Shown here: piece by piece, positions 1 through 56,806 of the stretch
How the letters are laid out: the number at the start of each line of letters is the position of its first letter
How positions within the stretch are numbered: the stretch's first letter is position 1
Origin: a virus
Length of the DNA: 64,000 nt
Direction: 5' to 3' (one strand)
Virus record (IMG/VR): IMGVR_UViG_3300047168_000120
Span: 31,521-95,520 of that record
Notes under the pieces: model-generated
Databases searched by the model: none
Told to the model about the DNA's origin: nothing
What the model saw: only the letters and a program-made list of their open reading frames with translations
Program-made: the position numbers and the translations under genes

Positions 1-140
1 CCGTGCCTGGCACCTGCCTCGACGACCTCCCGCAGTTTGCTTTCGTTCGGCCACGCGGCGATCAGAAGCATGCCCTTTGGAATGCTCCGAGCGTTCGTGA
101 ACGTAATCAGGCCATTTCTATCGACATACGCTCTTGCCAT
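1..140 (-). CDS. Small phage protein, 3' end outside window (MARAYVDRNGLITF...)
   Basis: ATG at 140, preceded by GAGGAG and the repeated two-hairpin element. Confidence 0.6.
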   Translation of the reverse strand, partial: MARAYVDRNGLITFTNARSIPKGMLLIAAWPNESKLREVVEAGARH

Positions 141-185
141 GTTTTTCTCCTCATAGCGCCACAATGGCGCCAACCCCGAAGGGTT

Positions 186-833
186 TCAAATAACCGAATC
201 GAGTATCCGGGCCGAAAGCACGGATATCTCGTAGGCTTCCTTCCAAGACCACACCTTCACGAAGGTGATCGGATAGGTGACCATCTTACCATCGACAACG
301 TGGACGACATCGATATGGGCATAATAGCCCTCGTTACCGCCACGTACCGGATAGCAGGCCGGCCAGCATCGGCCCTTTTCGCCGAGCGACTGCCAGCAGG
401 GCCAAATATCATCCTTTGTGAGTTGAGAGTGACCCCACCTGCGATCTCTCCGATAAAAATTATCGGAGTCGCCAATGTGTGGAATGCCAGCATTACGCAA
501 TGCGATTTCAAGTTCCCTTAGAACGTCATCGATCTTGCGATTCTCCCAATCTATACATTCCCTCTTGGCAGATAGATCGACATTGACATGTGGCTCAAAT
601 CCAGGCTTGGTCAGGAGCAGCTCCATCCAGTCATCCGACATGTTGGTAAATTGCTCCTGCCAGCCCTTGGCCATAGCCATGGCTTCGATCGATGGGCGCA
701 GATCCTGCAGAACGATGTCCTTGATGGGCTCGTCCGACGAGGACATGCGCTGCCATATGCGGCCCGCGGCAAAGCCGTGCGCATAGGAAGGCGATTGATC
801 GGGAAAGGCAAAACTAAGTTGATATTCGGGCAT
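186..833 (-). CDS. Hypothetical phage protein
   Basis: ORF; start reassigned to ATG 833 after GAGGAG. Confidence 0.75.
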   Translation of the reverse strand: MPEYQLSFAFPDQSPSYAHGFAAGRIWQRMSSSDEPIKDIVLQDLRPSIEAMAMAKGWQEQFTNMSDDWMELLLTKPGFEPHVNVDLSAKRECIDWENRKIDDVLRELEIALRNAGIPHIGDSDNFYRRDRRWGHSQLTKDDIWPCWQSLGEKGRCWPACYPVRGGNEGYYAHIDVVHVVDGKMVTYPITFVKVWSWKEAYEISVLSARILDSVI

Positions 834-870
834 GTTTTTTCTCCTCATGCTGCGGAATACAGCGACCGCG

Positions 871-1263
871 CTAAGCGGTTTCGGGGGTTGATCCGTGATC
901 GGTTTCCCCTGCATCAAACAGCGCCTCCACACACTGATCGGAGAGTGCTTTGAGCTCCGCCCAATCTTCGTCATTTCCTCCATGCTGGCGCTGCTCGATT
1001 TCGTGGTCGATAATTGCCATACAGCGTTTCAGAAGTTCTGGGATCGCATTTTTGTGGGGTATTTCTTCGGTCTTTGTTTCACCCCCGCAGTCGTCGCAAT
1101 AAGCATGGTCATGGACTGATTCCAGTTCCCATTGTTGGGTTTCCAGGTTCCATGAAGCCCACGCATCTCGCTTGACATTTGGGCTTCGGCAAGACGAACA
1201 GACCACGTCGACAGGGTGAGGTATCCTCGTTTTGTCAACGTAAGGCGTGTTTGCGTAAGTCAT
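871..1263 (-). CDS. Hypothetical protein with CxxC...CxxC zinc ribbon
   Basis: CSSC...CDDC; ATG 1263 after GAGGAG. Confidence 0.75.
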   Translation of the reverse strand: MTYANTPYVDKTRIPHPVDVVCSSCRSPNVKRDAWASWNLETQQWELESVHDHAYCDDCGGETKTEEIPHKNAIPELLKRCMAIIDHEIEQRQHGGNDEDWAELKALSDQCVEALFDAGETDHGSTPETA

Positions 1264-1321
1264 ATGTTTCTCCTCACGCCGGCGGGATGCCGGCGACCCC
1301 GCAAGGGGTTTCGGTGGCCGG

Positions 1322-1897
1322 TTAGGCCGCGCCTTCCTTTTCGAGCCTCTTATCGAGGTCGCTGGTATCAGGAAGATCGATGAAGTCCTTAATCGAATAG
1401 ACGTGTACGAGCTCACTGCCATAGCGGCTCGCATTACCCTCGGGTTTTTCGACAATGTCGTAAAATTCGAGAGTTTCATCGTCCAGGTTCAAAATATAGC
1501 CGTATTCGCACCAGCTTTTCGGCTCAATGCCGAAGTTGCCGTCCAGGAAGACGCCGGCGTCTAGGCGTTGGAGGATCGACCCTTGATGTTTCCGGCACAG
1601 GCAATACCAATCCTTGGTCGACTGTTTGGAAACGCTCAGATCGACGGCGCCCAGTTGTTGCATTTTGCGGATATCGCCATCCGAAGGCGTGGAGTCTTGT
1701 GCAATCAGGCGCGCTGTACGCGCCTTTTGCTTCAGTTCGCCAATTACGTCTTCGTAAACGCGATTCTTGAAACGCTCCTGAAGCTCGGCCAATATCTCGG
1801 CGCCAACGCCGCTGGGGTAGCCGTCGAACTGATTGTACGAAAGCTTGTCGGCCTGGTCGATGCGAATACCGCATACTGATCTTGTACCAATTTTCAT
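1322..1897 (-). CDS. Hypothetical phage protein
   Basis: ORF with AGGAG before ATG 1897. Confidence 0.7.
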   Translation of the reverse strand: MKIGTRSVCGIRIDQADKLSYNQFDGYPSGVGAEILAELQERFKNRVYEDVIGELKQKARTARLIAQDSTPSDGDIRKMQQLGAVDLSVSKQSTKDWYCLCRKHQGSILQRLDAGVFLDGNFGIEPKSWCEYGYILNLDDETLEFYDIVEKPEGNASRYGSELVHVYSIKDFIDLPDTSDLDKRLEKEGAA

Positions 1898-1951
1898 TCT
1901 CCTAATTAAAGTTTTCAAAAGCAGCTGTCTGCTGCAACCCCGGAAGGGGTT

Positions 1952-2197
1952 TCAGGTGTCGGGCAGGTCGGATTGCTCACACCGGACGACAAGTTCTTCG
2001 GTTCCGACGGCGTCCATGTATTCGAAATACCGGTCGATCGCCTCGGAATCATCCTTGGGAATCGGGCCTTCGACACCTTCTGGCCCCCAATTCGCGCGCG
2101 CATAGGCTGCGAGCTGGGATGTCAGGCCGGCCTCTGTTTTGTCCGAATAGGCGTTATACCCGTGGACGTGCCGCACTACGGCAACCCAAATTTTCAT
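1952..2197 (-). CDS. Hypothetical protein
   Basis: ORF with GAGGAG RBS; stop overlaps the hairpin element. Confidence 0.75.
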   Translation of the reverse strand: MKIWVAVVRHVHGYNAYSDKTEAGLTSQLAAYARANWGPEGVEGPIPKDDSEAIDRYFEYMDAVGTEELVVRCEQSDLPDT

Positions 2198-2291
2198 GTT
2201 TTCTCCTCTTCATTGGCGGCGCTGATGCCGCCGACCCGCGCGAGCGGGTTGCAGACAGTGTACTCAATGGCCGGTGAACCGGCCGACCGCA

Positions 2292-2588
2292 TTAAGCGGT
2301 TTCGCTGGGCGTCCCAAAGATCATTTCTGCGTCACGCTCATATTCCTGAACGGCCTTTTTCGCCGATGCTTCAAGAAATTCCCGCTGGCCTGGCTGTTCG
2401 ATTGGATCCGATATTTGCTCGACTTGAATCATAAGCCCTTTTCCCAGGAATTCCTCGGGCGTTTGGGAATCGTATTCGTTCTCAAGGAACCCTACGAACC
2501 GGTTGAGGGCAGAATAAACCATCATGGCGAGAATCACGTATTTTCGCTCATTGGCGGTTTGGACCTTTGGATCGTCTGAATTTTCCAT
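2292..2588 (-). CDS. Hypothetical acidic protein
   Basis: ATG 2588 after GAGGAG; ends ...SETA* inside the element. Confidence 0.75.
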   Translation of the reverse strand: MENSDDPKVQTANERKYVILAMMVYSALNRFVGFLENEYDSQTPEEFLGKGLMIQVEQISDPIEQPGQREFLEASAKKAVQEYERDAEMIFGTPSETA

Positions 2589-2662
2589 GTTTTTCTCCTC
2601 ATGGCGCCACAATGACGCCAACCGCCTTTCAGGCGGTTTCCTCAGAACGCATCACGCGCGCA

Positions 2663-2872
2663 TCAGATTTCCGACGGGATGATCTTGATGAGCAAATAGG
2701 ACGGTTCTTCATCCGCGTTGCCCTGCTGCTCATCAAGATCAGCGCCAAGGGTGTCTTCCAGTTCCTCGGGGATATTGTCGAACAATTTGCGGGCCTGTTT
2801 GCGGGTGATTACCGTACCGCTCCAGTTATCGGGCTGAGCGGCCGGCCAGGTATCTAAAATATCGTCTGGCAT
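2663..2872 (-). CDS. Hypothetical acidic protein
   Basis: ORF with GAGGAG RBS. Confidence 0.7.
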   Translation of the reverse strand: MPDDILDTWPAAQPDNWSGTVITRKQARKLFDNIPEELEDTLGADLDEQQGNADEEPSYLLIKIIPSEI

Positions 2873-2934
2873 ATCTTTCTCCTCATGCTGCGGAATTGCA
2901 GCGACACACCGCCCCTTTGGGGGCGGCGGTTTCC

Positions 2935-4134
2935 TTAGAACGCGTTACGCGCCGCTTTATCCATGACCTTGGCGCCGATCCGTTCGAGATCGAGGCGGCG
3001 GTCCTGGTGCTCAATGGTGCGAGCGACGGCGGTAATGCCCTGGCAGAAATCCCAGGCGCTGGTGGCAGGATGACCTTCCTCGCGTTCCACGGTATCCAGG
3101 ATCTTCCGGCTTTGAACCTTTGAAAAATCCAGGGTCTTGAGAAACGCCATGCGGTCATCGTCGTCACGCGCGACTTTGGCTTCCTTGGCAGCGGTAATGC
3201 CGGCGATGAGCTTGTTGGGCTCACTGAGGGCATAACGCTTCAGGGCGGGTTCCGCGTCGCGTGCAAAGCGATCCGGCGCGAAACGCGTGTGGTTGATCTT
3301 CATGGTGTCAAACCCTTCGACACCCCAGAGATTGCGGTTCATGCAAACGCCGCGCAGCATGAAAGTAGCGATGCCGAGCGACCTGCTGCCCACCTCAGAG
3401 TTCCAGGCATAGAAGCCGCGGAACACGTAATCGGGATCGCCGTTATCCAGCTTACCGATTTCGATGGGATGCGTGTCGTCAACCAGGAAAAGAAACACGT
3501 CGCGATCCGATGCATACAGCGTCGTACTCTCGGTCGTGGGCGAAACGTACGGATTGTACGTCTGTTTCGCCCAGTCAATCTGCCCCGGGATTTTCCAGCA
3601 GGTATCACCCGTCCCGTCGCCGGCGATGCGTTGCACCGCTTCGCCGAGCGTATGGTCCATGATCCGGCCGTAGCCGTCGCTGGTGAAGGCCCGTGCGTGG
3701 CGCGATTTGTCGTTCCAATAAAGCATGGAATTGAGATCGCGCTTCACGGTCAGGTCATCCATCAGATTGACCGCCGTGAGAAAGGCCGGCTTTTCACGCA
3801 GATACGAAGCAGGTGCGCCCGCGAGCGAGCACATCTGGCCGAATACATGGTGGGTAAGACCCAGCGGCTCACCACCATCGGGCGGCGCCAGGAACAGATT
3901 TCGTGTGTCTTCCTTGCTTGCGACAAGGCGCAGATCGCGGGCATCGATGACATCTTCCTTCATCCCGACGGAGCGGGCTTCGAGAGAGGCCATGAGCGCG
4001 GAAATGCTCGTGAACCGCTGGTCGGCCGGCCGCGAAAACCATTCCTGGCTGACGCGGCTGTTGTTAGAGCCACGCGTCGCATCGATGCGGCGCTCCCCGA
4101 CCACCGGGGTATTGTCAATGATGTGTGTATCCAT
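2935..4134 (-). CDS. DUF932 family phage/plasmid protein
   Basis: VSQEWFSRPADQRF, TLYASDRDVFLFLVD, FRGFYAWNSEVG and VCMNRNLWG motifs recalled for alphaproteobacterial DUF932 proteins. Confidence 0.8.
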   Translation of the reverse strand: MDTHIIDNTPVVGERRIDATRGSNNSRVSQEWFSRPADQRFTSISALMASLEARSVGMKEDVIDARDLRLVASKEDTRNLFLAPPDGGEPLGLTHHVFGQMCSLAGAPASYLREKPAFLTAVNLMDDLTVKRDLNSMLYWNDKSRHARAFTSDGYGRIMDHTLGEAVQRIAGDGTGDTCWKIPGQIDWAKQTYNPYVSPTTESTTLYASDRDVFLFLVDDTHPIEIGKLDNGDPDYVFRGFYAWNSEVGSRSLGIATFMLRGVCMNRNLWGVEGFDTMKINHTRFAPDRFARDAEPALKRYALSEPNKLIAGITAAKEAKVARDDDDRMAFLKTLDFSKVQSRKILDTVEREEGHPATSAWDFCQGITAVARTIEHQDRRLDLERIGAKVMDKAARNAF

Positions 4135-4325
4135 TCTTCGATTCTCCTTTTCAGTTGCAGCGTCGCGCCTCGCGGAATTGCGAAAGCGTTATCTGCGGAC
4201 CCCGGAGGGTTTCGGGAGGTATTACACACTAATATGTGTTTTTTGGAAGAAAAGTAAAGAATAAAAATGTGTTTCTGAAATGATTTTCCAGCCAGCGAAA
4301 TGCTGGCAACCGGCCGGAGCCGGTT

Positions 4326-4925
4326 TCATCTTTCTACGTGCTTGAGCACCTTGCGCTGAATTTCATTGGCGAGGCCAAAATAGGTCAGCCGCATCATGGG
4401 GTCGCTCAGCATGCTTTCCGCTTCCGCTTCCGCGGGGAATTTGGACCCCACGGAATCCAAAACCGCTTTGTTTTCCGGGTTAGCCCGGAACATTGCGGTT
4501 TTGGTGGCCCAGATGTAGAGCTCTGCCATGTGCTCGCTAAGAGGTGCTTCCAGGGAAGCCTCATACATCACCATGGCGAATTCAGTCGGACCGACTGGAA
4601 GTTCGGTCAGGGCGAGCGCCCATTTCAGGCGATCAGCGACGATGAAGTGTTTGAACTGCTCGTTTTGCGTCAGTGGATGATGCTGGAGCTCGCGCGTGCG
4701 GCTATGGCAGATGATAGGTCCGCCAACGAATTTAATCCGATAGCCAGCGATCTTCAGACGATGAATTCCGGCGCCAAGCGATAGCATCGCGGCGATAAGC
4801 TGCCCGCTCATGCCAATCAGCGCCAGAGGCTCCAGCCTTTGATAGAGGCTTTCAGCCACGGATTTTTCGTCTGGAAAATTAGTCCGAGCCGCATCATCCA
4901 TGATGTTCAAAATGTTCTGGTCCAT
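4326..4925 (-). CDS. Hypothetical protein
   Basis: 199-aa ORF with GAGGAG RBS. Confidence 0.75.
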   Translation of the reverse strand: MDQNILNIMDDAARTNFPDEKSVAESLYQRLEPLALIGMSGQLIAAMLSLGAGIHRLKIAGYRIKFVGGPIICHSRTRELQHHPLTQNEQFKHFIVADRLKWALALTELPVGPTEFAMVMYEASLEAPLSEHMAELYIWATKTAMFRANPENKAVLDSVGSKFPAEAEAESMLSDPMMRLTYFGLANEIQRKVLKHVER

Positions 4926-4973
4926 GTTTTTCTCCTCAATACCGGCAGGGATGCCGGCAACCCCAAAGGGGTT

Positions 4974-5324
4974 TCAGGAAGCGCGGATCAGCCGGCTCAC
5001 GGCCAGGATGCCATTCTCATCACGTTCAGCGCCTTGATAGGGGCTGGTTGCCGGGTAAACGATATCGGTCCTGTCCGGGCAAAGTTTTGCCGCGGCAAGA
5101 GCCGCTATCTGGCTCACGATGAGATAGGTTTTTGGCCGGGAATCCGGCAGGTTCTGGATGCCGATTGTGCGGCTTGGCGCGTGGATCGTAACGCCATCCT
5201 CTGAAGTGACGGCTGGCCCCATGCGCGTTTTTATTCGCACCGGGGGACCATCAGGTTCAATGATCCTCACGCATCCGTCGCATTTCAGCGATATGACGTG
5301 GGGTGTTAAATTCAAGATTTTCAT
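4974..5324 (-). CDS. Conserved hypothetical phage protein (NLTPH motif)
   Basis: MKILNLTPH...YLIVSQ...RTDIVYP. Confidence 0.7.
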   Translation of the reverse strand: MKILNLTPHVISLKCDGCVRIIEPDGPPVRIKTRMGPAVTSEDGVTIHAPSRTIGIQNLPDSRPKTYLIVSQIAALAAAKLCPDRTDIVYPATSPYQGAERDENGILAVSRLIRAS

Positions 5325-5370
5325 GGGGGTTCTCAAACCGGCGGGATGCCGGCAACCGGCCGGGCCGGTT

Positions 5371-5691
5371 TCAGAAGGTAGGACGGGCTTTTTTGCGGGC
5401 CACCAGATGTTTTAAAGACCTTATTTTCCCGATGGGATATGTGCGGGTCATTGATTTCAACGTCGATCCGAAGCGGCGCTCCAACTTCACCTCAATGAAG
5501 CTATTTTTAGCCAGCTTGCAGAAAGCGAAATCGCCACCTTTTTCCTTTAAAAGCTCCGAAACAAATGTTTCGATGTTCGCAGCGCGTTTGCGCTTGCACC
5601 GAGACATGTCTGCAGTCAATGACATCTGGCAAAGAGTGCCGTCATAAATTGGACCGATCATATGACCGTGCAAAGTGGTTGAAATTCTCAT
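5371..5691 (-). CDS. Hypothetical basic protein
   Basis: ATG 5691 after GAGGAG. Confidence 0.7.
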   Translation of the reverse strand: MRISTTLHGHMIGPIYDGTLCQMSLTADMSRCKRKRAANIETFVSELLKEKGGDFAFCKLAKNSFIEVKLERRFGSTLKSMTRTYPIGKIRSLKHLVARKKARPTF

Positions 5692-5739
5692 GTTTTTCTC
5701 CTCATGGCGCCACAATGGCGCCAACCGGCTGTGCCGGTT

Positions 5740-6234
5740 TCAATCAAGCAGGTGCTTCACCTGCCCATCGATCAGACTGTGAACCAACTCCTCAGATAGA
5801 TCGTCCAGGATCGCCTGAGACAGATCTTGAACCTCAAGAAAACGCAACTCGCCAACGCGATCCGCGATATCTCTATTGGCCCATCGTTCACATATATTTT
5901 CGATCAAGCTTCCATCTGAATGGAGATTGGCACTTCGAAAGAGTTCCTCTTTCGAGGTTGCTACGATCTCTGACCAGGCCGCTCTGATTTGTGGGTTTTT
6001 CCAGTGTTTTTTTTCGATGAGCAGGACGATTTCACTATCGGTAGGAACAACAGGCGTCGGGATTTTTTTATGAACGCGGTGGCCGAGGTAGTGAAGCATC
6101 GCGAACGTTACTTCGATATCCTCGCCAACCGCCAAACCGGCGTAGTTTTCCAGGTTTTCATCTTCATTGCTGAAATAATCCCAGCATGCTGTTCCGGCAT
6201 CCTTTTCAGGAGTTTCGAAAATTGTGAAGTTCAT
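5740..6234 (-). CDS. Hypothetical acidic protein
   Basis: ORF with GAGGA RBS. Confidence 0.75.
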   Translation of the reverse strand: MNFTIFETPEKDAGTACWDYFSNEDENLENYAGLAVGEDIEVTFAMLHYLGHRVHKKIPTPVVPTDSEIVLLIEKKHWKNPQIRAAWSEIVATSKEELFRSANLHSDGSLIENICERWANRDIADRVGELRFLEVQDLSQAILDDLSEELVHSLIDGQVKHLLD

Positions 6235-6277
6235 GTTTTCCTCATGCTCACCGGGGATATCCGGCGGCGACCGCCTT

Positions 6278-6535
6278 TCAGACGGTTTCTGGAAATGTCC
6301 AGTTGTAGGGCGGCTCGTCTATGAAGACGGCAGCCCTGGCTTCTTCTGAGCCGTTTCGATTCGAGGCTGCGATCTTCAGTATAGAATAGTCGCTGTAACC
6401 CGCCAGCATCCGAACCACATTCCACCAGGATTCTGGATCGTAGCAAAGCCGGGCGATTTCCCGCGGGGTCATCTGCAGGGATGAATTATCCTCGAATTTC
6501 ACGGCAAGATAATCTTCTTGTCTTGCGCGTGGCAT
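6278..6535 (-). CDS. Hypothetical protein
   Basis: ATG 6535 after GGAG; ends ...PETV*. Confidence 0.7.
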   Translation of the reverse strand: MPRARQEDYLAVKFEDNSSLQMTPREIARLCYDPESWWNVVRMLAGYSDYSILKIAASNRNGSEEARAAVFIDEPPYNWTFPETV

Positions 6536-6571
6536 GTTTTTTCTCCGCCGGCGGGATGCCGGCAACCGCCT

Positions 6572-6811
6572 TCAGGCGGTTTCTTTTTGGCGAGTAGGTA
6601 TATGGAATGCATCAGCCGGTTCAACACATCTCTCAATGTTGCCTTCCGGCGCCAGCTCGTAGATATAAATCTGGAACAGTCCAATACCCAGCTCGCCATT
6701 GTGAGCCTGCGTGATAAAGACATCACGCGCAGCCTTGGCTTTTTCCAGGCTCGGATACTGACCGAATATATGAAGGTCATCTCCTCGCCAAACCTGGACT
6801 TGGTGTTTCAT
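6572..6811 (-). CDS. Hypothetical protein
   Basis: ORF; ends ...KETA* inside the element. Confidence 0.7.
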   Translation of the reverse strand: MKHQVQVWRGDDLHIFGQYPSLEKAKAARDVFITQAHNGELGIGLFQIYIYELAPEGNIERCVEPADAFHIPTRQKETA

Positions 6812-6988
6812 GACATGTTTCTCCTCAATGCGGCGAATGCCGCGAATACCAGACGTTCCCGCCTGGTATTTTCCTAAAGGCCGAGCAGTTTCACGATCAG
6901 GAAGATCGTGATGCCGACGGCCAAAGCGTCGCCGACGCGCCCAATAAACGAAAGAATGATGGCGACTGCGATCAGCGTTCCGAAGAAC

Positions 6989-7186
6989 TCACCGATGAGT
7001 GTCAGCATCTTCCACCGTTTTGATTTGGACGGCGCCGCGCGCCGCTTGTTGAATGGCCAGCGGTTCGCTCATGTTGAAGCGCTTGCCGCCGGAGAAGTAC
7101 CAGCACTTGGTTCGACCCGTGCTGGAGTATTTTCGGAACACCGTGATTACGGATTTTCCGGGTTCGGTGTTTTCCACATTGCTCAC
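6989..7186 (-). CDS. Hypothetical protein
   Basis: Start overlaps the upstream stop by 4 nt. Confidence 0.55.
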   Translation of the reverse strand: MSNVENTEPGKSVITVFRKYSSTGRTKCWYFSGGKRFNMSEPLAIQQAARGAVQIKTVEDADTHR

Positions 7187-7611
7187 GCTGCGACCAGGCT
7201 CAGATTTGTGTCTGATTTCTGGACCCAGAGCGGATATCGCTGGAATTTCAGGCCGCGCAGGCTGATCGGAGCGTCCAGCAACGTGATGCTGTCGGAATCG
7301 ATCTCCCCGGCGCGCGCCGGCGGTTCGCCGGCGGCCGTGGACAGGGCGATAAAATATCGCGTCCCGTCCGGCCGGAAGGTCTGACCATTGCAGCGCACAA
7401 GAAGCGCTTCATGGTCTTCGGCCCGGTGATGACCATAAATCACCAATTCCAGCTTCCCGGTCGGAAATTCGTAGCTTGGCCCCACCCGATAGGCATGGGT
7501 CAACGTTTTGCAATACAGATCGACGAAAGCCGGCTTGAACCGGCGCAGCAGATATTTCCGCGTTTTGGGCGGGATATCGACTGCAATTCGCACAAAGGAT
7601 GTGTTTGTCAT
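7183..7611 (-). CDS. Hypothetical protein, first gene of the leftward operon
   Basis: AAGGAG RBS; AT-rich divergent promoter region upstream. Confidence 0.7.
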   Translation of the reverse strand: MTNTSFVRIAVDIPPKTRKYLLRRFKPAFVDLYCKTLTHAYRVGPSYEFPTGKLELVIYGHHRAEDHEALLVRCNGQTFRPDGTRYFIALSTAAGEPPARAGEIDSDSITLLDAPISLRGLKFQRYPLWVQKSDTNLSLVAA

Positions 7612-7742
7612 TCGACTAACTCCTTATTTTTATGGCATTATTGCCTATCGATATATAATGATTCCGGTTCCAAAATCAAGATAAAAACACATTTTAATGT
7701 GGTTAGCAATGTGCCATAAACCCGCCACCACAACGAAAAAGG

Positions 7743-9197
7743 ATGCCGATAATGCCTGTTGACCAGCCCCTGCTCGGTCTTTCGATGAGAATTCCACCCG
7801 CCAATGTCCAGGCCGAGCAATCTCTCCTCGGCGCTATATTGGCCAACAACAAAGCGTTCGACCGGGTTGGCCATTTTCTGAGGCCGGAGCATTTTGCTGA
7901 CCCATTCCATGGCAGGCTCTTTGGCGAGATCAGCCGGTTGATCCTTGAGGGCAAGGTCGCTGATCCAATAACCCTGCGCCCCTGGTTCCAGGCACAGCCT
8001 GACTGGGACGAGATGCCAGGCGGAGCGGCCTATATGGCGCAGCTGCTATCCGCGATGGTCGGCATCATCAATGCCGCCGATTATGGGCGATCGATCCAGG
8101 ATTCCTGGGCGAAGCGGCAAATCATCGACCGCGCAGAGCTGATGGTGGAAATGGCGTTTTCCGAAAATATGCGGGCCGAGGACATCGTGAACACCACCGT
8201 CACGGCGCTGGAAAGCACCATGCTGCTGCACGGCGATGTGGTAGAGGTCAGCCTCCAGGCAGCCTCAGAGCTGGTTTTCAACACAATGAGCGACGCGATG
8301 GGGGGAAAGACGTCCCCAATTTTCTCGACTGGCATCGCAGACCTGGACGCCATCCTGGGCGGCGGCCTTAAGCTACGGCACCTGAACATCCTCGGTGGCC
8401 GGCCGGGCCACGGCAAGAGCGCGCTGGCGCGGCAGGTCCTACTCTTCATAGCGCAGGAATACAAAATGCCCGTCCATGTCATTTCGTTGGAAATGACGGC
8501 CGAGGATCAGGCCGCGTGCGCGCTCGGGACGTATGCCGGGATCTCCGCTGACCGAATCGAACAGGGGCGCCTAAGCACGGCGGAAGCCATGCGCGTCTTT
8601 GATGCCAAGAAAGGGTTCGCTGATCTCAGGGTATTTTTCGATGACCGCCCGCGGTTGAATCTCGACCAGATCAGAATGGGAATCCGTCAATTCAGACGAA
8701 AATACGTCAAGAAAAATGAGCCTTTCCTTGTGGTTATCGATCACATGCACCTGATTTCCTTGAACAGCCGCACCGTGAAGGGCGGCCTCGGCCTGGTCTT
8801 CGCAATCGGCGAGAATGCGAACGGTCTGAAGGAGCTGGCGAAGGACGAAAATTGCAGCGTTCTGGCGCTGGCGCAGTTGAGCCGCAACAAAGAGGGATCG
8901 GAGGACAAGGTGCCAACCCTCGGAGATTTAAAGAATTCTGGCGATATAGAGGCTGCGGCTGACAAGGTGTTCTTCACGCATCGCCCAGAACTTCACCTGC
9001 ATAAATCGAAGCCCAGCCGGAAGCCGAATGAGAGCGATTCAGAGTATGCGGCGCGCGAGATCGCTTACCAGGCGCTCGTGGAGCAGGAAGCCGGCGTCGT
9101 GCATCTTGTCAGCGCAAAGGTGCGCCAGGGCCGCACCGGTGCCATTCAGATGCGCTTTGACGGCGAGACGACGGCCTTTTTGAGCCTGCATCAATGA
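7743..9197 (+). CDS. dnaB: Replicative DNA helicase (DnaB family)
   Basis: N-terminal AEQSLLGAIL, Walker A GRPGHGKS, IDHMHL, LAQLSR, SGDIEAAAD, KVRQGRTG. Confidence 0.95.
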   Translation: MPIMPVDQPLLGLSMRIPPANVQAEQSLLGAILANNKAFDRVGHFLRPEHFADPFHGRLFGEISRLILEGKVADPITLRPWFQAQPDWDEMPGGAAYMAQLLSAMVGIINAADYGRSIQDSWAKRQIIDRAELMVEMAFSENMRAEDIVNTTVTALESTMLLHGDVVEVSLQAASELVFNTMSDAMGGKTSPIFSTGIADLDAILGGGLKLRHLNILGGRPGHGKSALARQVLLFIAQEYKMPVHVISLEMTAEDQAACALGTYAGISADRIEQGRLSTAEAMRVFDAKKGFADLRVFFDDRPRLNLDQIRMGIRQFRRKYVKKNEPFLVVIDHMHLISLNSRTVKGGLGLVFAIGENANGLKELAKDENCSVLALAQLSRNKEGSEDKVPTLGDLKNSGDIEAAADKVFFTHRPELHLHKSKPSRKPNESDSEYAAREIAYQALVEQEAGVVHLVSAKVRQGRTGAIQMRFDGETTAFLSLHQ

Positions 9198-10342
9198 GCG
9201 ACCGCGAGACACCATGGTTCAAATTTTACCCCTCTGATTGGCAGGCAGATACCAACCTTGGAACCTGCAGTCTCGGGGCCCGCGGGCTGTGGATGGAGCT
9301 CTTATCCATCATGCACAAGTCGGAAAGATACGGTTTTTTGCTCATTTCTGACTCAAAACCGAGCATAAAACAGCTCGCTTTTGTGTGCAGAACTGAGCCA
9401 AAAAATGTCGAAAAATATCTCCAAGAATTGCGCAAATTTGGGGTTTTGTCTGAAACAGCCGATGGAATAATATTCTCCCGCCGAATGGTAAAGGATCGGG
9501 AGGGAAGCTCCATTTTGTCTGATGCCGGGTCGACCGGTGGCAACCCTAACATTCGGCGCGGAACCGTACGAAAAGACCTTCGAAAACGCTCCTACAGACG
9601 CTCAGACGCACCGGCAAAAACGAAAAGAATATTTGAAAAAACAGAAGGTTGTTGCATATGGTGCGGCGTCCATCTCGATGAAAATGGCGAAGGTCAAAAC
9701 GCCTTCCAGATCGACTATATAAAGCCGGTTTGCGACGGCGGTAATCACGATGAAAGCAACCTGGTTCCCTCATGCGGGGACTGCAAAAATTCGCGGTCAA
9801 TTGGAAAAAATTTCTATAAAAAGCCATTTAGGCCGGAGTGGCGGATATACGTTCCGACCGATTCCGACGTTAACGTCGGACGCGATTCCGACACTAAGCC
9901 CGACCATAAGCCCCATATACCAGAGACCAGAGACCAGAAAGAAAGAGTTCCGATTCCTTCGGAATCGGCGCCGGCGCTGCCGGCGCTCCCTGGGGTGATC
10001 ATCGATGTGCGCACCCAGCTTTTCCGGGACGGCCTGGAAATCCTGCGGCGCCTCACCGGCAAATCGGAGGGCGCCTGCCGGACTTTCCTGGGCAAGCTGC
10101 TCAGGGAGGCCGGCGACGACTGCGAGCTGGCGCTGCGCAAGCTGCGCGAGGCGGCCGAAACGCCTCCAGCCGACCCGGGAGCTTGGCTCATGGCCGCGGT
10201 CAAAAAAGGTTCGGTTCCGAAAAAAAGCGCAAAAACCGAGGCGATGGAAAAAATTTCCGCGAGGCTTGACGCGGGTGGCAAAAACACACAAAGATGTGTT
10301 TTGACCATCGACGGCGAAGCGGAGCGGGAACTGGATGTTTAA
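9194..10342 (+). CDS. Phage replication initiator with an internal degenerate HNH-like domain
   Basis: N-terminal PWFKFYPSDWQAD...SLGARGLWMELL...IFSRRMVKD; internal CIWCG...DYIKP...GG...NLVPSCGDC. Confidence 0.75.
   Translation: MSDRETPWFKFYPSDWQADTNLGTCSLGARGLWMELLSIMHKSERYGFLLISDSKPSIKQLAFVCRTEPKNVEKYLQELRKFGVLSETADGIIFSRRMVKDREGSSILSDAGSTGGNPNIRRGTVRKDLRKRSYRRSDAPAKTKRIFEKTEGCCIWCGVHLDENGEGQNAFQIDYIKPVCDGGNHDESNLVPSCGDCKNSRSIGKNFYKKPFRPEWRIYVPTDSDVNVGRDSDTKPDHKPHIPETRDQKERVPIPSESAPALPALPGVIIDVRTQLFRDGLEILRRLTGKSEGACRTFLGKLLREAGDDCELALRKLREAAETPPADPGAWLMAAVKKGSVPKKSAKTEAMEKISARLDAGGKNTQRCVLTIDGEAERELDV
9852..9938. other. Candidate replication origin (iteron-like repeats and palindrome) inside the initiator gene
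   Basis: TTCCGAC at 9852, 9862 and 9886; perfect palindrome TCCGACGTTAACGTCGGA at 9863-9880; TAAGCCC twice; CCAGAGA repeats at about 9920-9938. Confidence 0.5.
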
Positions 10343-10886
10343 GGTTTTGGAACGGATTGGAATCAATATCAGCCACCCGGCTGCGCAATCCCTGAATTAC
10401 CTCAAATCCACCGACATCGCCATGTTTCCCCCCTCACCGCGGCGCCTGGCCGATTGCGGGTTTTTGATGAACCTGCTGATGGTTTATTTTTCCGGGATCA
10501 CGCTGGCCGAGGCCACGGATTGGTTCGGCAGCGTCGTTGCCGGCACCAAAACCGGGTCGCTGGATGCGACCGAGATCGAGGCGCGGTGGAACGCGTTCGC
10601 GTTCAGCGTCGAGGGCAAGCCGAAATGCCTGTTCGACGACGCCTTGAAGCGCGAGGTCCTGTTGAAGTTTTCCTGGCTTCCGACGGCCGCCGAGGTCTGG
10701 GCTTTGGTGGAACCGGAATATGCTGAATTTCAGTCTGTATTGCTGCATTTGAACAAGATTTTGGGGCGCCCTTTCCGTGCAGCCCTTCCCTCCTTCGCCG
10801 AGATCGAAGAGCACGGATGGGCCATCGACCCGGCCGCAAAGCCTGCGATCGTATCAGTCCCGATTCGGGCGCTCAGCCAGGCTTAA
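10335..10886 (+). CDS. Hypothetical replication-associated protein
   Basis: Overlaps the initiator stop; WLPTAAEV motif. Confidence 0.6.
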   Translation: MFKVLERIGINISHPAAQSLNYLKSTDIAMFPPSPRRLADCGFLMNLLMVYFSGITLAEATDWFGSVVAGTKTGSLDATEIEARWNAFAFSVEGKPKCLFDDALKREVLLKFSWLPTAAEVWALVEPEYAEFQSVLLHLNKILGRPFRAALPSFAEIEEHGWAIDPAAKPAIVSVPIRALSQA

Positions 10887-11409
10887 AGCCGGCCGGCAGC
10901 CCATACAGCCGCGGGAACGGGAGCGCCTTTACCGGCACCTGGCGGCTCCGTAATACGGCATCGAAATCCTCAATCGAATAAACGACCACGTGAAGATGGG
11001 CCAGGCGAACAGCAGCGTCCCGGAATATGCGTTGCGGGCGTGATAATCGCCCTGCCTTTCGGTCCGGCGTCAGTCCCGGTATTCCGGCCAGCTCCGGGAC
11101 CTTCACTTCGATCAGCGTCGTAGCAGCGCCATCGGTGAGTAGGATCAGGTCGACAGCCCCCGGCAGAACGCCCTGCCCGGCCGGCACCAGGAAAGCCTCG
11201 TCTGGCTTGAATCTCTCTACCTCAGCATCCTTTTTCCTCTTACGGCCAGTCAACATGCTGGCCGTGGAAGGGTCCCTCTTCTCGCCATTCGGCACCGCGA
11301 AAAGAATGGCGTCGCCTGGCCGCACCACGGCGGCGAAATAGGCGACGATCGAGGCCTGGAGGTCTCGCTCGGGATGCGCCCTTGGAGAGGTCAGCTTGAA
11401 GGGTTTCAT
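10873..11409 (-). CDS. VRR-NUC-like PD-(D/E)xK nuclease / resolvase
   Basis: ERDLQASIV, FAVPNG, GVLPGAVDL, IEVK, GRLSRPQ. Confidence 0.8.
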   Translation of the reverse strand: MKPFKLTSPRAHPERDLQASIVAYFAAVVRPGDAILFAVPNGEKRDPSTASMLTGRKRKKDAEVERFKPDEAFLVPAGQGVLPGAVDLILLTDGAATTLIEVKVPELAGIPGLTPDRKAGRLSRPQRIFRDAAVRLAHLHVVVYSIEDFDAVLRSRQVPVKALPFPRLYGLPAGFKPG

Positions 11410-11548
11410 ACGGGGCGACCACCTGGGGTCGTGCCGATTTTCCTCAATAAACTTCTGGTTTTATTGAGGGTTTTTCGCTGTAACGAATGTGTGAAATTCC
11501 GTTCATATTTTAGACAATAACATTGCAAAGAAGGTATTTTAACGCCTA

Positions 11549-11863
11549 TTAAGAATTCGCAACACATTTTGGTGTTACTTTTGGTATGTCTTTTGAGGTG
11601 GAACTTATGTGCGGCTCTGCGTTCTGGTTCAGGTCTTTTTTCGGAGCGGCGCGGAGTTTAACCCCAGGGTTTTTTTCAAGGTAATCCAATGTTTTCTGAA
11701 CGGCGCGCAACGTGGTTATCGATGGCTCCCAGCCTGGCTTTAACATGCCTTGCAGCGTGTTCGGGTGCAGCCCAGATTTTATGGCGATTCCTCGAATCGG
11801 TTGGCCGCTTCCCTTTACCTGCTTCACGACATGGACGATCAGCTTATCGATATCTTGCGTCAT
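11549..11863 (-). CDS. Cro-like HTH regulator
   Basis: IRGIAIKSGLHPNTL...WEPSITTL; divergent from the cI-like gene. Confidence 0.7.
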   Translation of the reverse strand: MTQDIDKLIVHVVKQVKGSGQPIRGIAIKSGLHPNTLQGMLKPGWEPSITTLRAVQKTLDYLEKNPGVKLRAAPKKDLNQNAEPHISSTSKDIPKVTPKCVANS

Positions 11864-11926
11864 CGCGCGAATCAAAACACATTAGGTTGTGTTTTTCAAT
11901 AGTTTTGCCTTCAAATTCACAACATA

Positions 11927-12637
11927 ATGGTGTGTCGCGTGTCTGATGTCGAGTCGTCCGCTGAAAAGCGCCGTGTGGCCCTCAAAAAGGTCCTCAATGA
12001 GCGCGGCATCAATCCAACTGACCTTGCCAGCATGTGCGGGTGGGGCACGCCCAACGTGATCTATAATTTCTTTGCGGGCCGCACCACCCAGCTCTCAACT
12101 CAAAAATATGAGGAAATCTGTAAGGCTCTGCCAGGCATTACGGTTTCTGATCTTACGGGCGGCACTGTAAAAAAAACCGCGCCTCAGGTTCTGGTGAAAA
12201 CAGAGTGCCGGGCCGGTTATTTGAGGGACACGTTCTCGCTGCCGGCCTCTAAAATTCGCGAGCTTCCATTGCCTGTGGATGACGCTGCTCGCGTCGCCGG
12301 CGCTTATGCCGCTGTCGTGCGCCATCCGGGCGCCGAATCGATCTATCCGGAAGGGTCCTTACTGCTTTGCATCCCGGTCGACAGGTTTGAAGGCGAAATT
12401 ACAAGGGGTCGCCGTCTCCTCGTGGAGCGTCTTGTGGACACCAAATTGGAAGTCACGGTACGCGAGGTTCAGGAAGACGCAGAAGGCCGATTCTGGCTCT
12501 CCCAAAGGTCCACTGACCCGAGGTTTTCCGACGCTGTAAAATTGCCGCAGCAGATTTCAGGAAAACCGTGGCGCGAGAAGGGGGAGAAGTATGCGATTGC
12601 CGGCATCGTGATCGGCGCATTCGTCCCCGAACAATAG
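11927..12637 (+). CDS. CI-like repressor (N-terminal HTH, S24-like C-terminal domain)
   Basis: PTDLASMCGWGTPNVIYNF helix-turn-helix; C-terminal ...YPEGSLL...IAGIVIG. Confidence 0.75.
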   Translation: MVCRVSDVESSAEKRRVALKKVLNERGINPTDLASMCGWGTPNVIYNFFAGRTTQLSTQKYEEICKALPGITVSDLTGGTVKKTAPQVLVKTECRAGYLRDTFSLPASKIRELPLPVDDAARVAGAYAAVVRHPGAESIYPEGSLLLCIPVDRFEGEITRGRRLLVERLVDTKLEVTVREVQEDAEGRFWLSQRSTDPRFSDAVKLPQQISGKPWREKGEKYAIAGIVIGAFVPEQ

Positions 12638-12641
12638 GCAC

Positions 12642-12678
12642 AAAAAACCCCCGAAGCCGTAACTTCGGGGGTTTTTTT
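12642..12678. terminator. Bidirectional intrinsic terminator
   Basis: AAAAAACCCCCGAAG-ccgtaa-CTTCGGGGGTTTTTT between convergent genes. Confidence 0.85.
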
Positions 12679-12982
12679 AAGACGCAAGCGCCATTTCTAC
12701 GCCGGGCAGGAAGGCGACGCCTTGCGCGTTCACCAGGATTGGTTTCGGCGGGGCGGCGAACCAACCCGAGACCGTATCACCAACCCAGCTGCACGCGTCG
12801 CTGGCGACGTCGTACACAGCCTGGCAAGCTGGCTTGCCGTACTCGTAGACAACGATCACGGCGGCGGCATTCACCGCGGCTGCGGTAACGACCGCGCCGG
12901 CGATCAGCACGTTCTTCGCGGCAGCGCTGGCAACCGCCTCGGCAGCGATTTGCGATGCGGTGTCCAAAAGACGATCGATCAT
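12677..12982 (-). CDS. Hypothetical Ala-rich, possibly membrane protein
   Basis: AAGGAG RBS before ATG 12982. Confidence 0.65.
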   Translation of the reverse strand: MIDRLLDTASQIAAEAVASAAAKNVLIAGAVVTAAAVNAAAVIVVYEYGKPACQAVYDVASDACSWVGDTVSGWFAAPPKPILVNAQGVAFLPGVEMALAS

Positions 12983-13004
12983 TGATTTTCTCCTTGTTTT
13001 GATA

Positions 13005-13602
13005 GCCAGAGGATTCTGGCGGACGACCGGGGAATAAAGTCCCGGCCGGCTTCGGCACGAAATAGGCGTCTCTCCAGGAGAGCTCGACACTCAGAATTTT
13101 CGATTTTGGTAGAAGATAATTGAGCTCGATCCTGGATCGACCTGTTTATCAAACTGGAATTGCTTCCAGTGACCCCGTAGGGGTTGCAAACAAAGGATTA
13201 ACATAACTTATATGGTAGTAGACCATTGAAATTCAAGGTTTTTATTGTTTTCAGGAATATTTTTGGGAATATTTTGCGTCGATTTTGTCAGTTTTTACGC
13301 ATCTTTTTCGGCGAGGTCCAAGGCAAGAATATCATCAGCGAGAGCCATTTTGGCGGTCACGATGCGGCCGCCGAATCCGACAACGTCGGCGATCTCAGCC
13401 AGGCGCCTGGTAATCTTCCTGTGTTCCCTGCCGGCTGATGCTGCGTTGGGATCTCCGGCTCGCACGATCCTTGCAAGATCGGTCTGTTTGGCACGGTAGG
13501 AATCGATGAGAATTATCGCTTCCTCTCGCGTAATTTCCAAATATTTTGGCATTATCGATTTAATCACGCTGGATATTGTCCAGCAACCCCCGCAGGGGTT
13601 TC
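13005..13602 (-). repeat. Three more copies of the two-hairpin element
   Basis: About 13005-13053 (divergent), 13153-13187 and 13568-13602 (GAAACCCC-TGCG-GGGGTT-GCTGGA...TCCAGC). Confidence 0.7.
13295..13552 (-). CDS. Hypothetical protein
   Basis: ORF following a hairpin element. Confidence 0.6.
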   Translation of the reverse strand: MPKYLEITREEAIILIDSYRAKQTDLARIVRAGDPNAASAGREHRKITRRLAEIADVVGFGGRIVTAKMALADDILALDLAEKDA

Positions 13603-13604
13603 GT

Positions 13605-14366
13605 TTAGGCCGCCTTGCTCTTGCCCGGCATTTCTGCCGGTGGCGGCGCCGCGAGATCGGGGCGCTTCAGGTGATACGCCAGCCAGTTCGGATGGCTAAA
13701 GGAGCGAGGCCTGCTCATGGGCATGAGAAGCCCTACGGCATCCACGTTCCCGAAGCTGGTCCGGAAATGGGCTGGCCCACTATTGTCGCAGATTTCGATG
13801 TTGATACCGGCTCCTTTTGTCTCGCCCAGGATCTCCGCGAATTGACCGATGCGCTGCAGCAGCGAGGAGCTAAACACCGCCCCGCTCCGCTCTTCACCGA
13901 TCTTCTTGAAGAGCCTCGAGAAGTCAGGAAACGTCCCGTCGATCGCGGCATTGCGGCCGATCTGCTCACAATTTGGGCTATCCCATTCCAACTCAGCCAC
14001 TTCCTGAGCCGTAAGCTTCGTGCCGGCATGGAACGCCAACCTGAATTCAGGTGCCGTTTCCTTACCGTGTTGCTCGTAGCGCAGCCATTTGGACGTGAAG
14101 TTTTTGGACTTCGACTCCTTTGCCTTGATCTCGGCCGCGAATTCCTTGATGCGCCAGATCTGCGACGCCCCGGCGCAATGCGCGTCCGGGTCGTAGACGG
14201 ACACCAGGAGGTGACCATCGGTGGCCGTCATAACCGCGCCACCTTCCTCATGCGGCTGGATGTAAATGCCGCCCAAGTAATAGCGCGTTTCCTCGGTCGA
14301 CACGATTTTCATCAGCGCCTGCATGTGGCGCGGTCGAACGACAGCGATTGAATTTTGATTGGTCAT
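13605..14366 (-). CDS. DNA polymerase III beta-clamp-like protein (short)
   Basis: STEETRYYLGGIY, ATDGHLL, IDGTFPDF, LLMPM; about 253 aa. Confidence 0.75.
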   Translation of the reverse strand: MTNQNSIAVVRPRHMQALMKIVSTEETRYYLGGIYIQPHEEGGAVMTATDGHLLVSVYDPDAHCAGASQIWRIKEFAAEIKAKESKSKNFTSKWLRYEQHGKETAPEFRLAFHAGTKLTAQEVAELEWDSPNCEQIGRNAAIDGTFPDFSRLFKKIGEERSGAVFSSSLLQRIGQFAEILGETKGAGINIEICDNSGPAHFRTSFGNVDAVGLLMPMSRPRSFSHPNWLAYHLKRPDLAAPPPAEMPGKSKAA

Positions 14367-15391: not shown

Positions 15392-15515
15392 AGCGTTCTC
15401 CGTTAAGTTGTTGAAACACATAAGAATGTGTGTCATTCTCGTACTCAGAATATGGGTCTTATTTGATTTATTTCAATACTTTGCGGGAACAAAATAACCC
15501 ATGGCGTCAAGTTGA

Positions 15516-16430: not shown

Positions 16431-16474
16431 ATTTCCGGTTGCAAAACACATCTTAATGTGTTTTTCTTTTCCAC

Positions 16475-34252: not shown

Positions 34253-34325
34253 TGCGGGGTAGCGCAGTTGGTAGAGCGTCGGAGTCATAATCCGAAGGTC
34301 ATTGGTTCAAATCCAATTCCCGCAA
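34253..34325 (+). tRNA. tRNA with CAT anticodon (fMet-like body), no encoded CCA
   Basis: Acceptor TGCGGGG/TCCCGCA; anticodon arm TCGGA-GTCATAA-TCCGA; T-loop TTCAAAT; TTGACG and operator upstream. Confidence 0.9.
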
Positions 34326-42864: not shown

Positions 42865-43454
42865 GGCAACGTCTCTTTCCCTTGGAATTTTCCAACCTCA
42901 TTGCCCCAGCTCAGCCAGCCAGGCGCGGTTTCGCGGGCGAACAGTTCGACACGGGGCCCGAGCCACAGCTTTTCGAGATCCGCGCGCATTTCGTCCGGTT
43001 TGCGGCTGTGCTCCCGCGCCGGCGCGATGATCGCGTTGCGGATAGACCGGCTCTGGCGCTTCGGCGCGCCGATGGTTCCGACGAGCGCAAATTCACTGGC
43101 AGCCCGGTAAATATAGCCGGGGCCGAATGCCATCTTCCCGTTCTTGCTCTGCTTGGTCCATGGCAGGCCGGTTTTGTATTCGAAGCCCCATGCCGCAAGC
43201 AGTCGCAGCCCGGCGGGCAGCATCGGCCAGGTACACCACATCGTCAGAGCACAACCATCAGGATCGGCGAGCTCGCGCACCGGCAGCGCCGCGATATCCT
43301 CCAGTTTCATACAGGCATAGTGCTGAACGGGGTTTTTCTTTTCGCCTTTGGCTGAGTAATTTTTGAAATACCAAGGCGGATCGGCCAAAATGCATCGAGC
43401 TTGCCTGGGCGGAATGTCCCCGAAAGGCCATGCAGAGAATAGGTCTGACGCCAT
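42861..43454 (-). CDS. MT-A70 family adenine methyltransferase
   Basis: DPPWYF, HSRKPD, ELFAR...GW.SWGNE. Confidence 0.9.
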   Translation of the reverse strand: MASDLFSAWPFGDIPPRQARCILADPPWYFKNYSAKGEKKNPVQHYACMKLEDIAALPVRELADPDGCALTMWCTWPMLPAGLRLLAAWGFEYKTGLPWTKQSKNGKMAFGPGYIYRAASEFALVGTIGAPKRQSRSIRNAIIAPAREHSRKPDEMRADLEKLWLGPRVELFARETAPGWLSWGNEVGKFQGKETLP

Positions 43455-43565
43455 AAAAACACACAGTAATGTGTTTTTATCAGGCTTTCAATGTGCAATG
43501 ATGTTCATTGATGTACATTGGTGAACATTTCCGGATAAATATGGCATTTAAATGCCATTCTTCCC

Positions 43566-48151: not shown

Positions 48152-48274
48152 GGGCCACTCCTCAAAAACACATCGTAATGTGTTTATCGTTGGTCGTAAA
48201 GCTTCAATGATGTGGCGGCGACCAAAAAACACCACCCAGGAGGTCAGCGCGTTCATGTCGAACTGGGGCCAATC

Positions 48275-56609: not shown

Positions 56610-56806
56610 AAATTTTAGCCAGGAAACACATTTAAGTGTGTTTTCCGGCTAATTTGAGATGTTTTTTTCTTGACGGGGCGACCAGCAAATCGCCCCGTCA
56701 ACGTGTCAGCCCGGAAACGGGCTCGCTCGTCACACCCGTCTGAGCAGCGGGACTGCCCCGAAATCGCCGCTGGGGCGCGGCTGCTCAACACGTGAAGGTG
56801 TGAAAA

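Follow-up and report, generated by a model that had tools for sequence, protein, structure and literature searches.

We analyzed a window of 64,000 nucleotides (nt), bases 31521 to 95520 of a single 95,520-bp phage contig (IMG/VR record IMGVR_UViG_3300047168_000120, labeled G000 where it has to be told apart from other genomes) that encodes a terminase, a portal protein, and a DnaB-like helicase, and we describe here an RNA element that recurs between the genes of an accessory gene array in this window. The element is predicted to be a lineage of type II hammerhead RNAs, a kind of RNA that is already known, laid out as an array. We consider it probable that it is an intercistronic RNA module that is a type II hammerhead by descent, that its core strand doubles as the Shine-Dalgarno (SD) sequence of the next gene, that it cleaves itself slowly or not at all in this phage, and that it serves mainly as a gene junction and as a site of cassette swapping. 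The structure of the element, its strand, its homology to hammerheads, its overlap with the ribosome-binding site (RBS), and the recombination breakpoints within it are established by observation.

The array occupies positions 1 to 7611 on the minus strand and comprises 17 mostly small open reading frames (ORFs). All of its stop-to-start junctions were extracted and read on the minus strand, and the module was present at 14 of 15 consecutive junctions, in this order: stop codon, a hairpin that begins with GAAACC (hairpin 1), GGU(C/U), a GC-rich hairpin 2, NUGAGGAG, an A-rich spacer, and AUG. The stop codon takes one of three placements, either as a UGA overlapping GAAAC, in the loop of hairpin 1, or a few nucleotides upstream. 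The second of these placements gives five proteins a C-terminus of ETA or ETV, confirming for those genes the recurrent PETA, SETA, KETA, and PETV endings that a first-pass annotation of the sequence had pointed out. No T-run follows either hairpin in the sequence.

A covariance model (R1) built from six window copies was run with filters off against both strands of the whole 95,520-bp genome. It returned 14 matches at E < 1e-3 and 4 weaker ones, without exception on the minus strand and confined to window positions -190 to 6876 and 13141 to 13605, with the best match elsewhere at E = 0.45. The total of 19 copies consists of 15 R1 matches within 138 to 6876, 1 atypical copy, 1 copy outside the window (an R1 match 134 nt beyond the window's start; L084 19811-19867, minus strand), and 2 weak copies at 13 kb. 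The search and the atypical copy, together with the covariation reported below, bear out the initial estimate of about 19 copies of a covarying two-hairpin element with an RBS; of three additional copies that had been placed near 13 kb, two hold (13141-13190 and 13553-13605) and the third is unsupported.

Stem sequences change in this element while pairing is kept. Among 37 aligned copies, in an alignment that was fitted to the model and hence biased in favor of structure, 97.9% of the cells were paired, compared with 73% after shuffling and 35 to 55% when the partner strand was slid; 82 double-sided changes were counted, and none of 500 shuffles scored as high. In 55 further copies, taken from relatives, 98.6% of the cells were paired and 109 double changes were counted. 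Read on the sense strand, the stems hold 12 G.U wobbles versus 2 A.C pairs, and because the wobbles are strand specific, the fold belongs to the sense RNA and not to the DNA. The loop of hairpin 2 is mostly AUCCC or AUUCC, and single-stranded GAAA and UGA are kept while the stems vary. A census and inspection by eye found no regular pairing, in the window, of the 5' flank with the nucleotides after UGANGA, and a CUCC/GGAG helix that hides the SD sequence occurs in only about 5 of 38 copies.

Relatives were found by pattern scans of IMG/VR followed by whole-record R1 searches, which gave matches at E values down to 1e-14 in three phages: G001 (96.6 kb; 19 copies), G006 (93.3 kb; 26 copies in the whole-record search and 27 with filters off), and G009 (100.9 kb, with terminal repeats; 27 copies). 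All copies of a given relative share one strand and fall within one block of 10 to 23 kb. The portal proteins of G000 and G001 are about 48% identical, and no DnaB homologue was found in G001. The Rfam family Hammerhead_II (RF02276), whose consensus has the same layout as the element and a stem II of only 2 bp, has a gathering cut-off of 37 bits; G001 exceeds it with a match of 37.9 bits and G006 with matches of 42.7 and 41.4 bits, and about twenty sub-threshold matches fall on other copies of the relatives. These homologous copies substantiate the likeness of the GAAA-stem-GUH-stem order to a type II hammerhead that had been remarked on at first, and, together with the published prophage clusters (PMC3088659), they overturn the statement that the element is not a named motif. 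The comparison with Rfam that the first-pass annotation proposed was thus positive in G001 and G006 and negative in the window, where only a tRNA was reported at the gathering cut-off; the best RF02276 score in the whole window genome, 21.3 bits, falls on the copy just outside the window. A weak Hammerhead_II match (19.4 bits) is also seen at G001:C1:36995-37069 (minus strand), about 4 kb outside the main array of that phage.

Further searches did not extend the set. The neighborhoods of DUF932-like genes at 80 IMG/VR loci (identity of at most 55%) held neither the element nor any Rfam family, and an exact 20-nt pattern for hairpin 2 had three chance-like matches in IMG/VR, none with the element. 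A search for relatives based on TerL returned a single 26-kb fragment without the array. Among the matches listed by a metagenome pattern scan were three weak, chance-like model matches, one of which proved on inspection to be a terminator and an SD sequence adjoining a tRNA. The pattern scan of a genome collection gave eight matches, none with the element, and no host or prophage was found thereby. Among the sequencing runs listed as containing this stretch, none was an RNA run.

The module can be mapped onto the hammerhead position by position. Hairpin 1 is the putative stem III, hairpin 2 the putative stem I, and the U or C between the hairpins would be H17, the nucleotide at the cleavage site; GAAA would correspond to G12-A14 plus A15.1, and the NUGAGGA that follows hairpin 2 to the core strand of positions 3 to 9. 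The permuted order of the three-way junction (GAAA-III-H17-I-core strand) is found in the window copies. We parsed 89 copies into hammerhead positions, 17 of them from the window genome. Of those 17, 16 have GAAA and one has GCAA, and the first pair, A15.1-U16.1, is present in all 37 aligned copies; H17 is U in nine and C in five, is accompanied by extra nucleotides in three, and is never G. In several copies U17 could pair with A3, an arrangement in which the site would be buried. UGA is kept in 14 of the 17, among which G8 is found in 10 and A9 in all 14. It is lost at 6533-6586 and 4279-4330, and the weak copy at 2256-2306 has U8. Most copies carry a full 7-nt NUGAGGA that differs from CUGANGA only at position 3, rather than a core reduced to (R)UGAG as had been stated.

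The relatives are closer to the family consensus, G001 being the nearest (C11.1 in 17 of 18 copies, GUC in 18 of 18, and C in 12, A in 3, and U in 1 at position 3). The copies of G006 have GAAA in 27 of 27, C11.1 in 26 of 27, UGA in 26 of 27, G8 in 25 of 26, A9 in 26 of 26, and G10.1 in 25 of 26; position 3 is A in 16, U in 7, and C in 3, and the 16 A3 copies are otherwise at consensus. The C11.1-G10.1 pair is retained in 17 of 18 copies in G001 and 26 of 27 in G006, and in G009 position 3 is A in 14, C in 7, and G in 1. Position N7 is G in 12, A in 6, C in 4, and U in 4 copies of G006, and this freedom is a hammerhead signature that is independent of the SD sequence. Across the approximately 90 copies, GAAA and GGU(C/U) are nearly invariant and the stems and loops have diverged freely.

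Within the window, all copies are on the minus strand. The best one, at 5689-5744 (R1 score, 78.7 bits; fold z = -3.3), has a UGA stop overlapping GAAAC, U as H17, the core AUGAGGA, and a possible 2-bp stem II made of G.U and A-U. The same core is found at 2586-2643 (73.5 bits; U as H17; a G.U wobble in stem I), at 138-190 (66.1 bits; U as H17; stop UGA overlapping GAAAC; start codon at 140-138), at 831-885 (45.9 bits; GUC; upstream gene ending in PETA, with its UAG in the stem III loop), at 6232-6292 (33.9 bits; upstream gene ending in PETV; imperfect long stem I), and at 2870-2936 (32.9 bits; GUC; long stem III), a copy that follows the DUF932-like gene and has an apparent ortholog at that junction in G001. 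The copy at 1261-1315 (68.2 bits; GUC) has G at position 3 (GUGAGGA) and a stem I of GCCGGC/GCCGGC with the loop AUCCC. At 4923-4978 (52.4 bits), an upstream UGA stop overlaps GAAAC and the tail is AUUGAGGAG; this copy has 18 identical nt in common with the copy just outside the window. The same tail ends the array's first copy (6809-6876; 25.8 bits), a variant with GAAAAU and an 8-bp, AU-richer stem III. Just upstream of that first copy is an ORF for 44 strongly hydrophobic amino acids (6874-7008, minus strand), which overlaps the end of the preceding ORF.

The remaining copies depart further from the common form. At 6533-6586 (63 bits), behind a gene ending in KETA, the core UGA is gone and GGAG directly follows stem I. 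The copy at 5322-5375 (61.4 bits) reads UUGAGAA, with U3/A8, a known compensatory pair, and has no good SD sequence; the degenerate copy at 1895-1956 (14.6 bits) retains both hairpins, has the tail UUUUGAAAA (U3/A8), and is followed by an SD sequence further downstream. Two copies in tandem with no gene between them, which had been spotted early on, are confirmed at 2195-2306: the first (2256-2306; 16.4 bits) follows a gene ending in SETA and has no SD sequence or gene after it, and the second (2195-2255; 34.9 bits) has GCAAC for GAAAC and the tail AAUGAAGAGGAG, then AUG. The copy that ends the upstream unit (4279-4330; 44.1 bits) has both hairpins and no UGA, SD sequence, or next gene; this copy and the tandem pair look like emptied junctions. 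R1 missed the atypical copy (4132-4216), which occupies the 5' leader of the DUF932-like gene and was read by eye as a GAAAC hairpin, GUC, and a long stem I with bulges, followed by CUGAAAAGGAG. Alone among the window copies it has C at position 3, there joined with A8; its upstream CUCC pairs with the SD sequence GGAG, and its minimum free energy fold is a three-way junction. Of the two weak outliers, the one at 13141-13190 (15.2 bits; E = 0.19) has GCAAC, two hairpins, UUGAUAA, and no adjacent start codon, and the one at 13553-13605 (19.5 bits; E = 0.011) has GAAAC, two hairpins, GUGAUUA, and AUG at 13552. The U3/A8 combination is confined to the copies at 5322-5375, 1895-1956, and 13141-13190, each of which has other defects.

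Several points weigh against reading the element as a hammerhead. In the active fold C3 pairs with G8 (PMC3884650), and in a comprehensive mutagenesis all single changes in CUGA resulted in low activity (PMC9901934), and yet position 3 is A in six, U in six, G in two, and C in none of the 14 copies of the window genome in which UGA is kept. Nor does the window genome keep a regular 10.1-11.1 pair: 11.1 is U in seven, C in five, G in three, and A in two copies, and only three copies there are at consensus apart from A3. With E values of up to 10 allowed, Rfam reported no hammerhead or other ribozyme in window positions 1 to 14000, and the 42.7-bit alignment of G006 deletes C3-U4-G5, so that an Rfam score above the cut-off is no proof of a full core. 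For fast cleavage, most type II hammerheads rely on a pseudoknot between loop I and the 3' tail; no pseudoknot of loop I with the 3' tail or the 5' flank rose above the cross-copy control, and the mean complementarity of loop I to its own 3' tail was 3.53 versus 3.51 across copies, a comparison to which a conserved contact would be invisible because loop I is itself semi-conserved (AUYCC). In addition, a role as hairpins plus RBS alone leaves the strict conservation of GAAA and UGA unexplained if the copies are non-catalytic. Judged by C3, the 10.1-11.1 pair, and the Rfam score, the window's own copies are not members of the family.

What is kept around position 3 bears on the strongest alternative, according to which the window copies are fully working self-cleaving ribozymes with an active A3 or U3 core and the polycistronic transcript is cut after every GUC or GUU into single-gene mRNAs. 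Besides position 3, about 90 copies from four phages show strong purifying selection on the core, the 16 A3 copies of G006 depart from the consensus nowhere else, A3 recurs at an apparently orthologous junction despite the low portal identity of the two phages, and prophage hammerhead clusters do cleave, with slow core variants in phages also noted (PMC3088659). Nevertheless, the Watson-Crick pairing of C3 with G8 and the low activity of CUGA mutants (PMC3884650, PMC9901934), the irregular 10.1-11.1 pair in the window, and the missing pseudoknot signal all speak against this alternative. So does the combination of A3 with G8 in most copies, U3-A8 being the sole covariation that has been reported from nature (PMC3088659). 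We regard the alternative as less probable.

The A or U at position 3 seems to have been maintained by selection rather than to result from decay, since the rest of the core is nearly invariant, UGANGA is kept where it is not the SD sequence (e.g., AUGACGAGAAC, and CUGAAAA followed by GGAG), and G000 and G001 both have an A3 copy after the DUF932-like gene, each with a stem III of unusual length and with compensatory changes in the stems. A or U at this position also prevails in two relatives whose cores otherwise follow the consensus. A possible, if still doubtful, extension is that these phages of about 95 kb carry a distinct, selected hammerhead clade with A or U in place of C3 and a core strand that is the RBS, in which A3 copies would be active or else slowed or conditional, cleavage would unmask the RBS, and cassettes would be exchanged by recombination within the ribozymes.

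In all four phages, N7-G8-A9-G10.1 or the nucleotides just after them form a GGAG/GAGGA SD sequence, and the start codon lies 6 to 9 nt beyond it. The SD sequence and the A-rich spacer are the most uniform parts of the window copies. One module stands before each cistron of the accessory block. For cleavage, its rate, and its effects on mRNA stability and translation, we infer the following from the fold. In the folded junction, the core and stem II would tie up the SD bases. Cleavage after H17 in copies with an intact core would give an upstream mRNA that ends in a hairpin; as only 1 to 5 bp hold the upstream fragment, it would drop off, and the downstream mRNA would then begin with a 5'-OH hairpin and a freed RBS. 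Unmasking of the RBS would in this way be coupled to cleavage. Slow or no self-cleavage is expected in the window copies because C3 is replaced by A, U, or G and there is no regular 10.1-11.1 pair. Without cleavage, the module would still provide a standard, context-insulating junction that joins hairpins at the 3' and 5' ends with a strong RBS, and its repeated identical stretches of 13 to 18 nt would let homologous recombination add, delete, and swap gene cassettes.

The same conserved positions could mark a site for a protein, such as an endoribonuclease of the phage or its host, or a regulator of translation that binds the two-hairpin junction with its GAAA, UGA, and AUYCC loop, with the hammerhead likeness being historical only. 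Single-stranded GAAA, UGA, and the hairpin 2 loop are indeed conserved while the stems vary, and this conservation persists in copies that break the catalytic consensus. We nevertheless find this explanation unlikely, as the conserved sites match the hammerhead core one for one, including the free N7, which a protein site does not predict, and no candidate protein is at hand, the sole gene that heads all four arrays (7183-7611) having no assigned function. Less likely still is that the element is an ordinary RBS with stabilizing or terminator-like hairpins that was spread by duplication and has no specific fold and no relation to ribozymes. The uniformity of the SD sequence and spacer, the short GC-rich hairpins, and the silence of Rfam on the window would suit such reuse, but it is contradicted by the retention of UGANGA away from the SD sequence (the AUGACGAGAAC and CUGAAAA cases), by the near invariance of GAAA and GGU(C/U) in about 90 copies, by the Rfam matches above the cut-off in two relatives, and by the lack of a T-run after either hairpin. 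Two other candidates were dropped, namely, an RNase III site, for which the stems were judged too short, and a CRISPR-like repeat ending in GAAAC, since the 200- to 1,200-bp spacing consists of coding genes.

Alignment of moss-metagenome contigs to the window located breakpoints inside the elements. In runs X9 and X10, which come from two studies, a contig joins position 141 to position 836 through 13 shared nt of the SD-spacer-AUG part, a joint that amounts to the precise loss of the gene at 186-833 plus one element. In run X1, probably the source sample, a contig connects position 4923 with the beginning of the last gene in the operon (contig position 31330, 190 nt ahead of the window) and lacks the 5.1 kb in between; both elements involved share 18 identical nt, and the joint points to a deletion variant in the same population. 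Another X9 contig matches the hairpin core at 5340-5373 only and has unrelated coding sequence on both sides, and in one further case the contig departs from the window precisely at 188, where an element has its 5' edge. Run X7 was rejected as a variant, its word share of 48% reflecting low coverage of the same phage.

Gene content has nearly all turned over between the arrays. Of the 17 proteins of the window array, G001 has relatives of 4, G009 of 5, and G006 of 2, at 25 to 54% amino acid identity and in a different order, and in the one pair of arrays compared, those of G009 and G006, nucleotide similarity is limited to two stretches (45 and 58 nt) about as long as an element. Together with the metagenome breakpoints, this turnover supports the earlier idea of junctions that let genes be shuffled as cassettes and suggests that the elements may be places where phages swap accessory genes. 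As the breakpoints fall in plain sequence identity, homologous recombination is indicated rather than a dedicated recombinase. That the element is instead a DNA-level site-specific recombination site like attC, recognized in a folded, single-stranded form by a recombinase responsible for cassette movement, is very improbable, for although the genes behave as element-bounded cassettes of small promoterless ORFs in one orientation, the wobbles favor G.U over A.C on the sense strand, there are two separate hairpins of 5 to 8 bp rather than one long imperfect hairpin, GAAAC and GGUY do not fit RYYYAAC/GTTRRRY, the 13-nt joint in the SD-spacer part is as expected for homologous recombination, and no integron-type integrase adjoins the array.

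Nearly all ORFs of the array are without a Pfam or PHROG function, and most have no known relatives. They include the DUF932-like gene (2935-4134, minus strand; 399 amino acids) and, at the head of the array in all four phages compared, a gene for 142 amino acids (7183-7611, minus strand). The array continues about 430 nt past the window's start and stops at a strong intrinsic terminator; the operon after that terminator has no such elements. An AT-rich, promoter-like gap in the array contains a palindromic, operator-like site, AAACACAT-N4-GUGUGU (4220-4241), and the gap divides the array into two transcription units.

A palindrome of the form AAACACAT-N4-ATGTGTTT is repeated just upstream of operon starts, often after a TTGCAA or TTGTAA box, at window positions 4220-4241, 10265-10318, 15414-15451, 16434-16463, 43439-43476, 48147-48199, and 56624-56659 and at about 30985 and 27805 of the contig; it looks like an operator embedded in promoters. 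Between convergent genes at 12624-12679 is a GC-rich hairpin with 11 bp of perfect pairing and with A-runs and T-runs on its flanks, which would serve as a bidirectional intrinsic terminator, and weak Rfam matches to Thr and His leaders at these positions are merely that terminator. The phage also encodes a tRNA-Met (CAU) at 34253-34325 (plus strand) and has a TIGR array; the idea of a link between the latter and the element was dropped. In G001, the portal homologue (G001:C1:45374-47965) matches in two blocks (residues 85 to 312 and 308 to 628) about 1 kb apart that share one open frame of 953 amino acids, which suggests an inserted domain or intein.

In the literature that we searched, we found no earlier description of one copy per junction with 19 to 27 copies per genome, of a hammerhead core fused with the RBS, of a predominance of A or U at position 3, or of recombination breakpoints that fall inside such elements. 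The purpose of bacterial and phage hammerheads has been open since 2011, and this group of phages may be a good system for asking about it, as its copies form a natural series from consensus C3 through A3 or U3 to clearly broken. Cleavage by A3 copies would mean that the accepted core consensus is drawn too tightly and that a whole clade escapes any search requiring C3; a lack of cleavage would mean that a ribozyme fold was retained for a non-catalytic role. Either way, the metagenome breakpoints suggest that the elements are sites of accessory-gene swapping between phages.

Engineered aptazyme riboswitches for expression in bacteria, which hide an RBS in a hammerhead stem until cleavage releases it, are synthetic, of type I or III, and ligand controlled. 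The present element resembles them in that the RBS is part of the ribozyme fold and in that folding or cleavage would be coupled to translation; unlike those devices, which hold the RBS in stem I, it is natural and repeated. Repeated modules before small genes are also found in Cluster K mycobacteriophages, as start-associated sequences and their extended form, and in T4-type phages, as promoter-stem-loop (PeSL) cassettes. Like the element, these are short repeats that combine an RBS or regulatory signals with an inverted repeat at mosaic boundaries, but they differ in sequence and are without a hammerhead core or a two-hairpin three-way junction, and PeSL contains a promoter. In integrons, attC sites are likewise structured repeats that bound small, promoterless cassettes with fast turnover; they differ from the element in being DNA-level IntI sites with RYYYAAC/GTTRRRY cores and a single long imperfect hairpin.

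The closest likeness is to the type II hammerheads themselves, which are common in bacteria and often have a stem II of only 1 to 2 bp (Perreault et al. 2011, PMC3088659). Several of them often flank single genes or short blocks in prophages, the identities of the genes being variable; such clusters were described in prophages of Agrobacterium tumefaciens, Azorhizobium caulinodans, and Clostridium scindens, and the Agrobacterium (flanking ardA) and Azorhizobium examples cleave in vitro and in vivo (PMC3088659). The element shares with these clusters the permuted order, the open and very short stem II, GC-rich stems like those of the Rfam consensus, and the position between genes of polycistronic phage accessory regions (with ardA there and the DUF932-like gene here), and its sister-phage copies pass or approach the RF02276 cut-off. 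It differs from type II hammerheads in that the window copies are without a regular 10.1-11.1 pair, detection by RF02276, and, save the atypical one at 4132-4216, C3 and in that no copy-specific pseudoknot of loop I with the 3' tail was found. Unlike the published clusters, in which arrangements of three ribozymes were tested (PMC3088659), it stands at nearly every junction, in 19 to 27 copies per genome, and its N7-G8-A9-G10.1 doubles as the SD sequence of a start codon 6 to 9 nt downstream.

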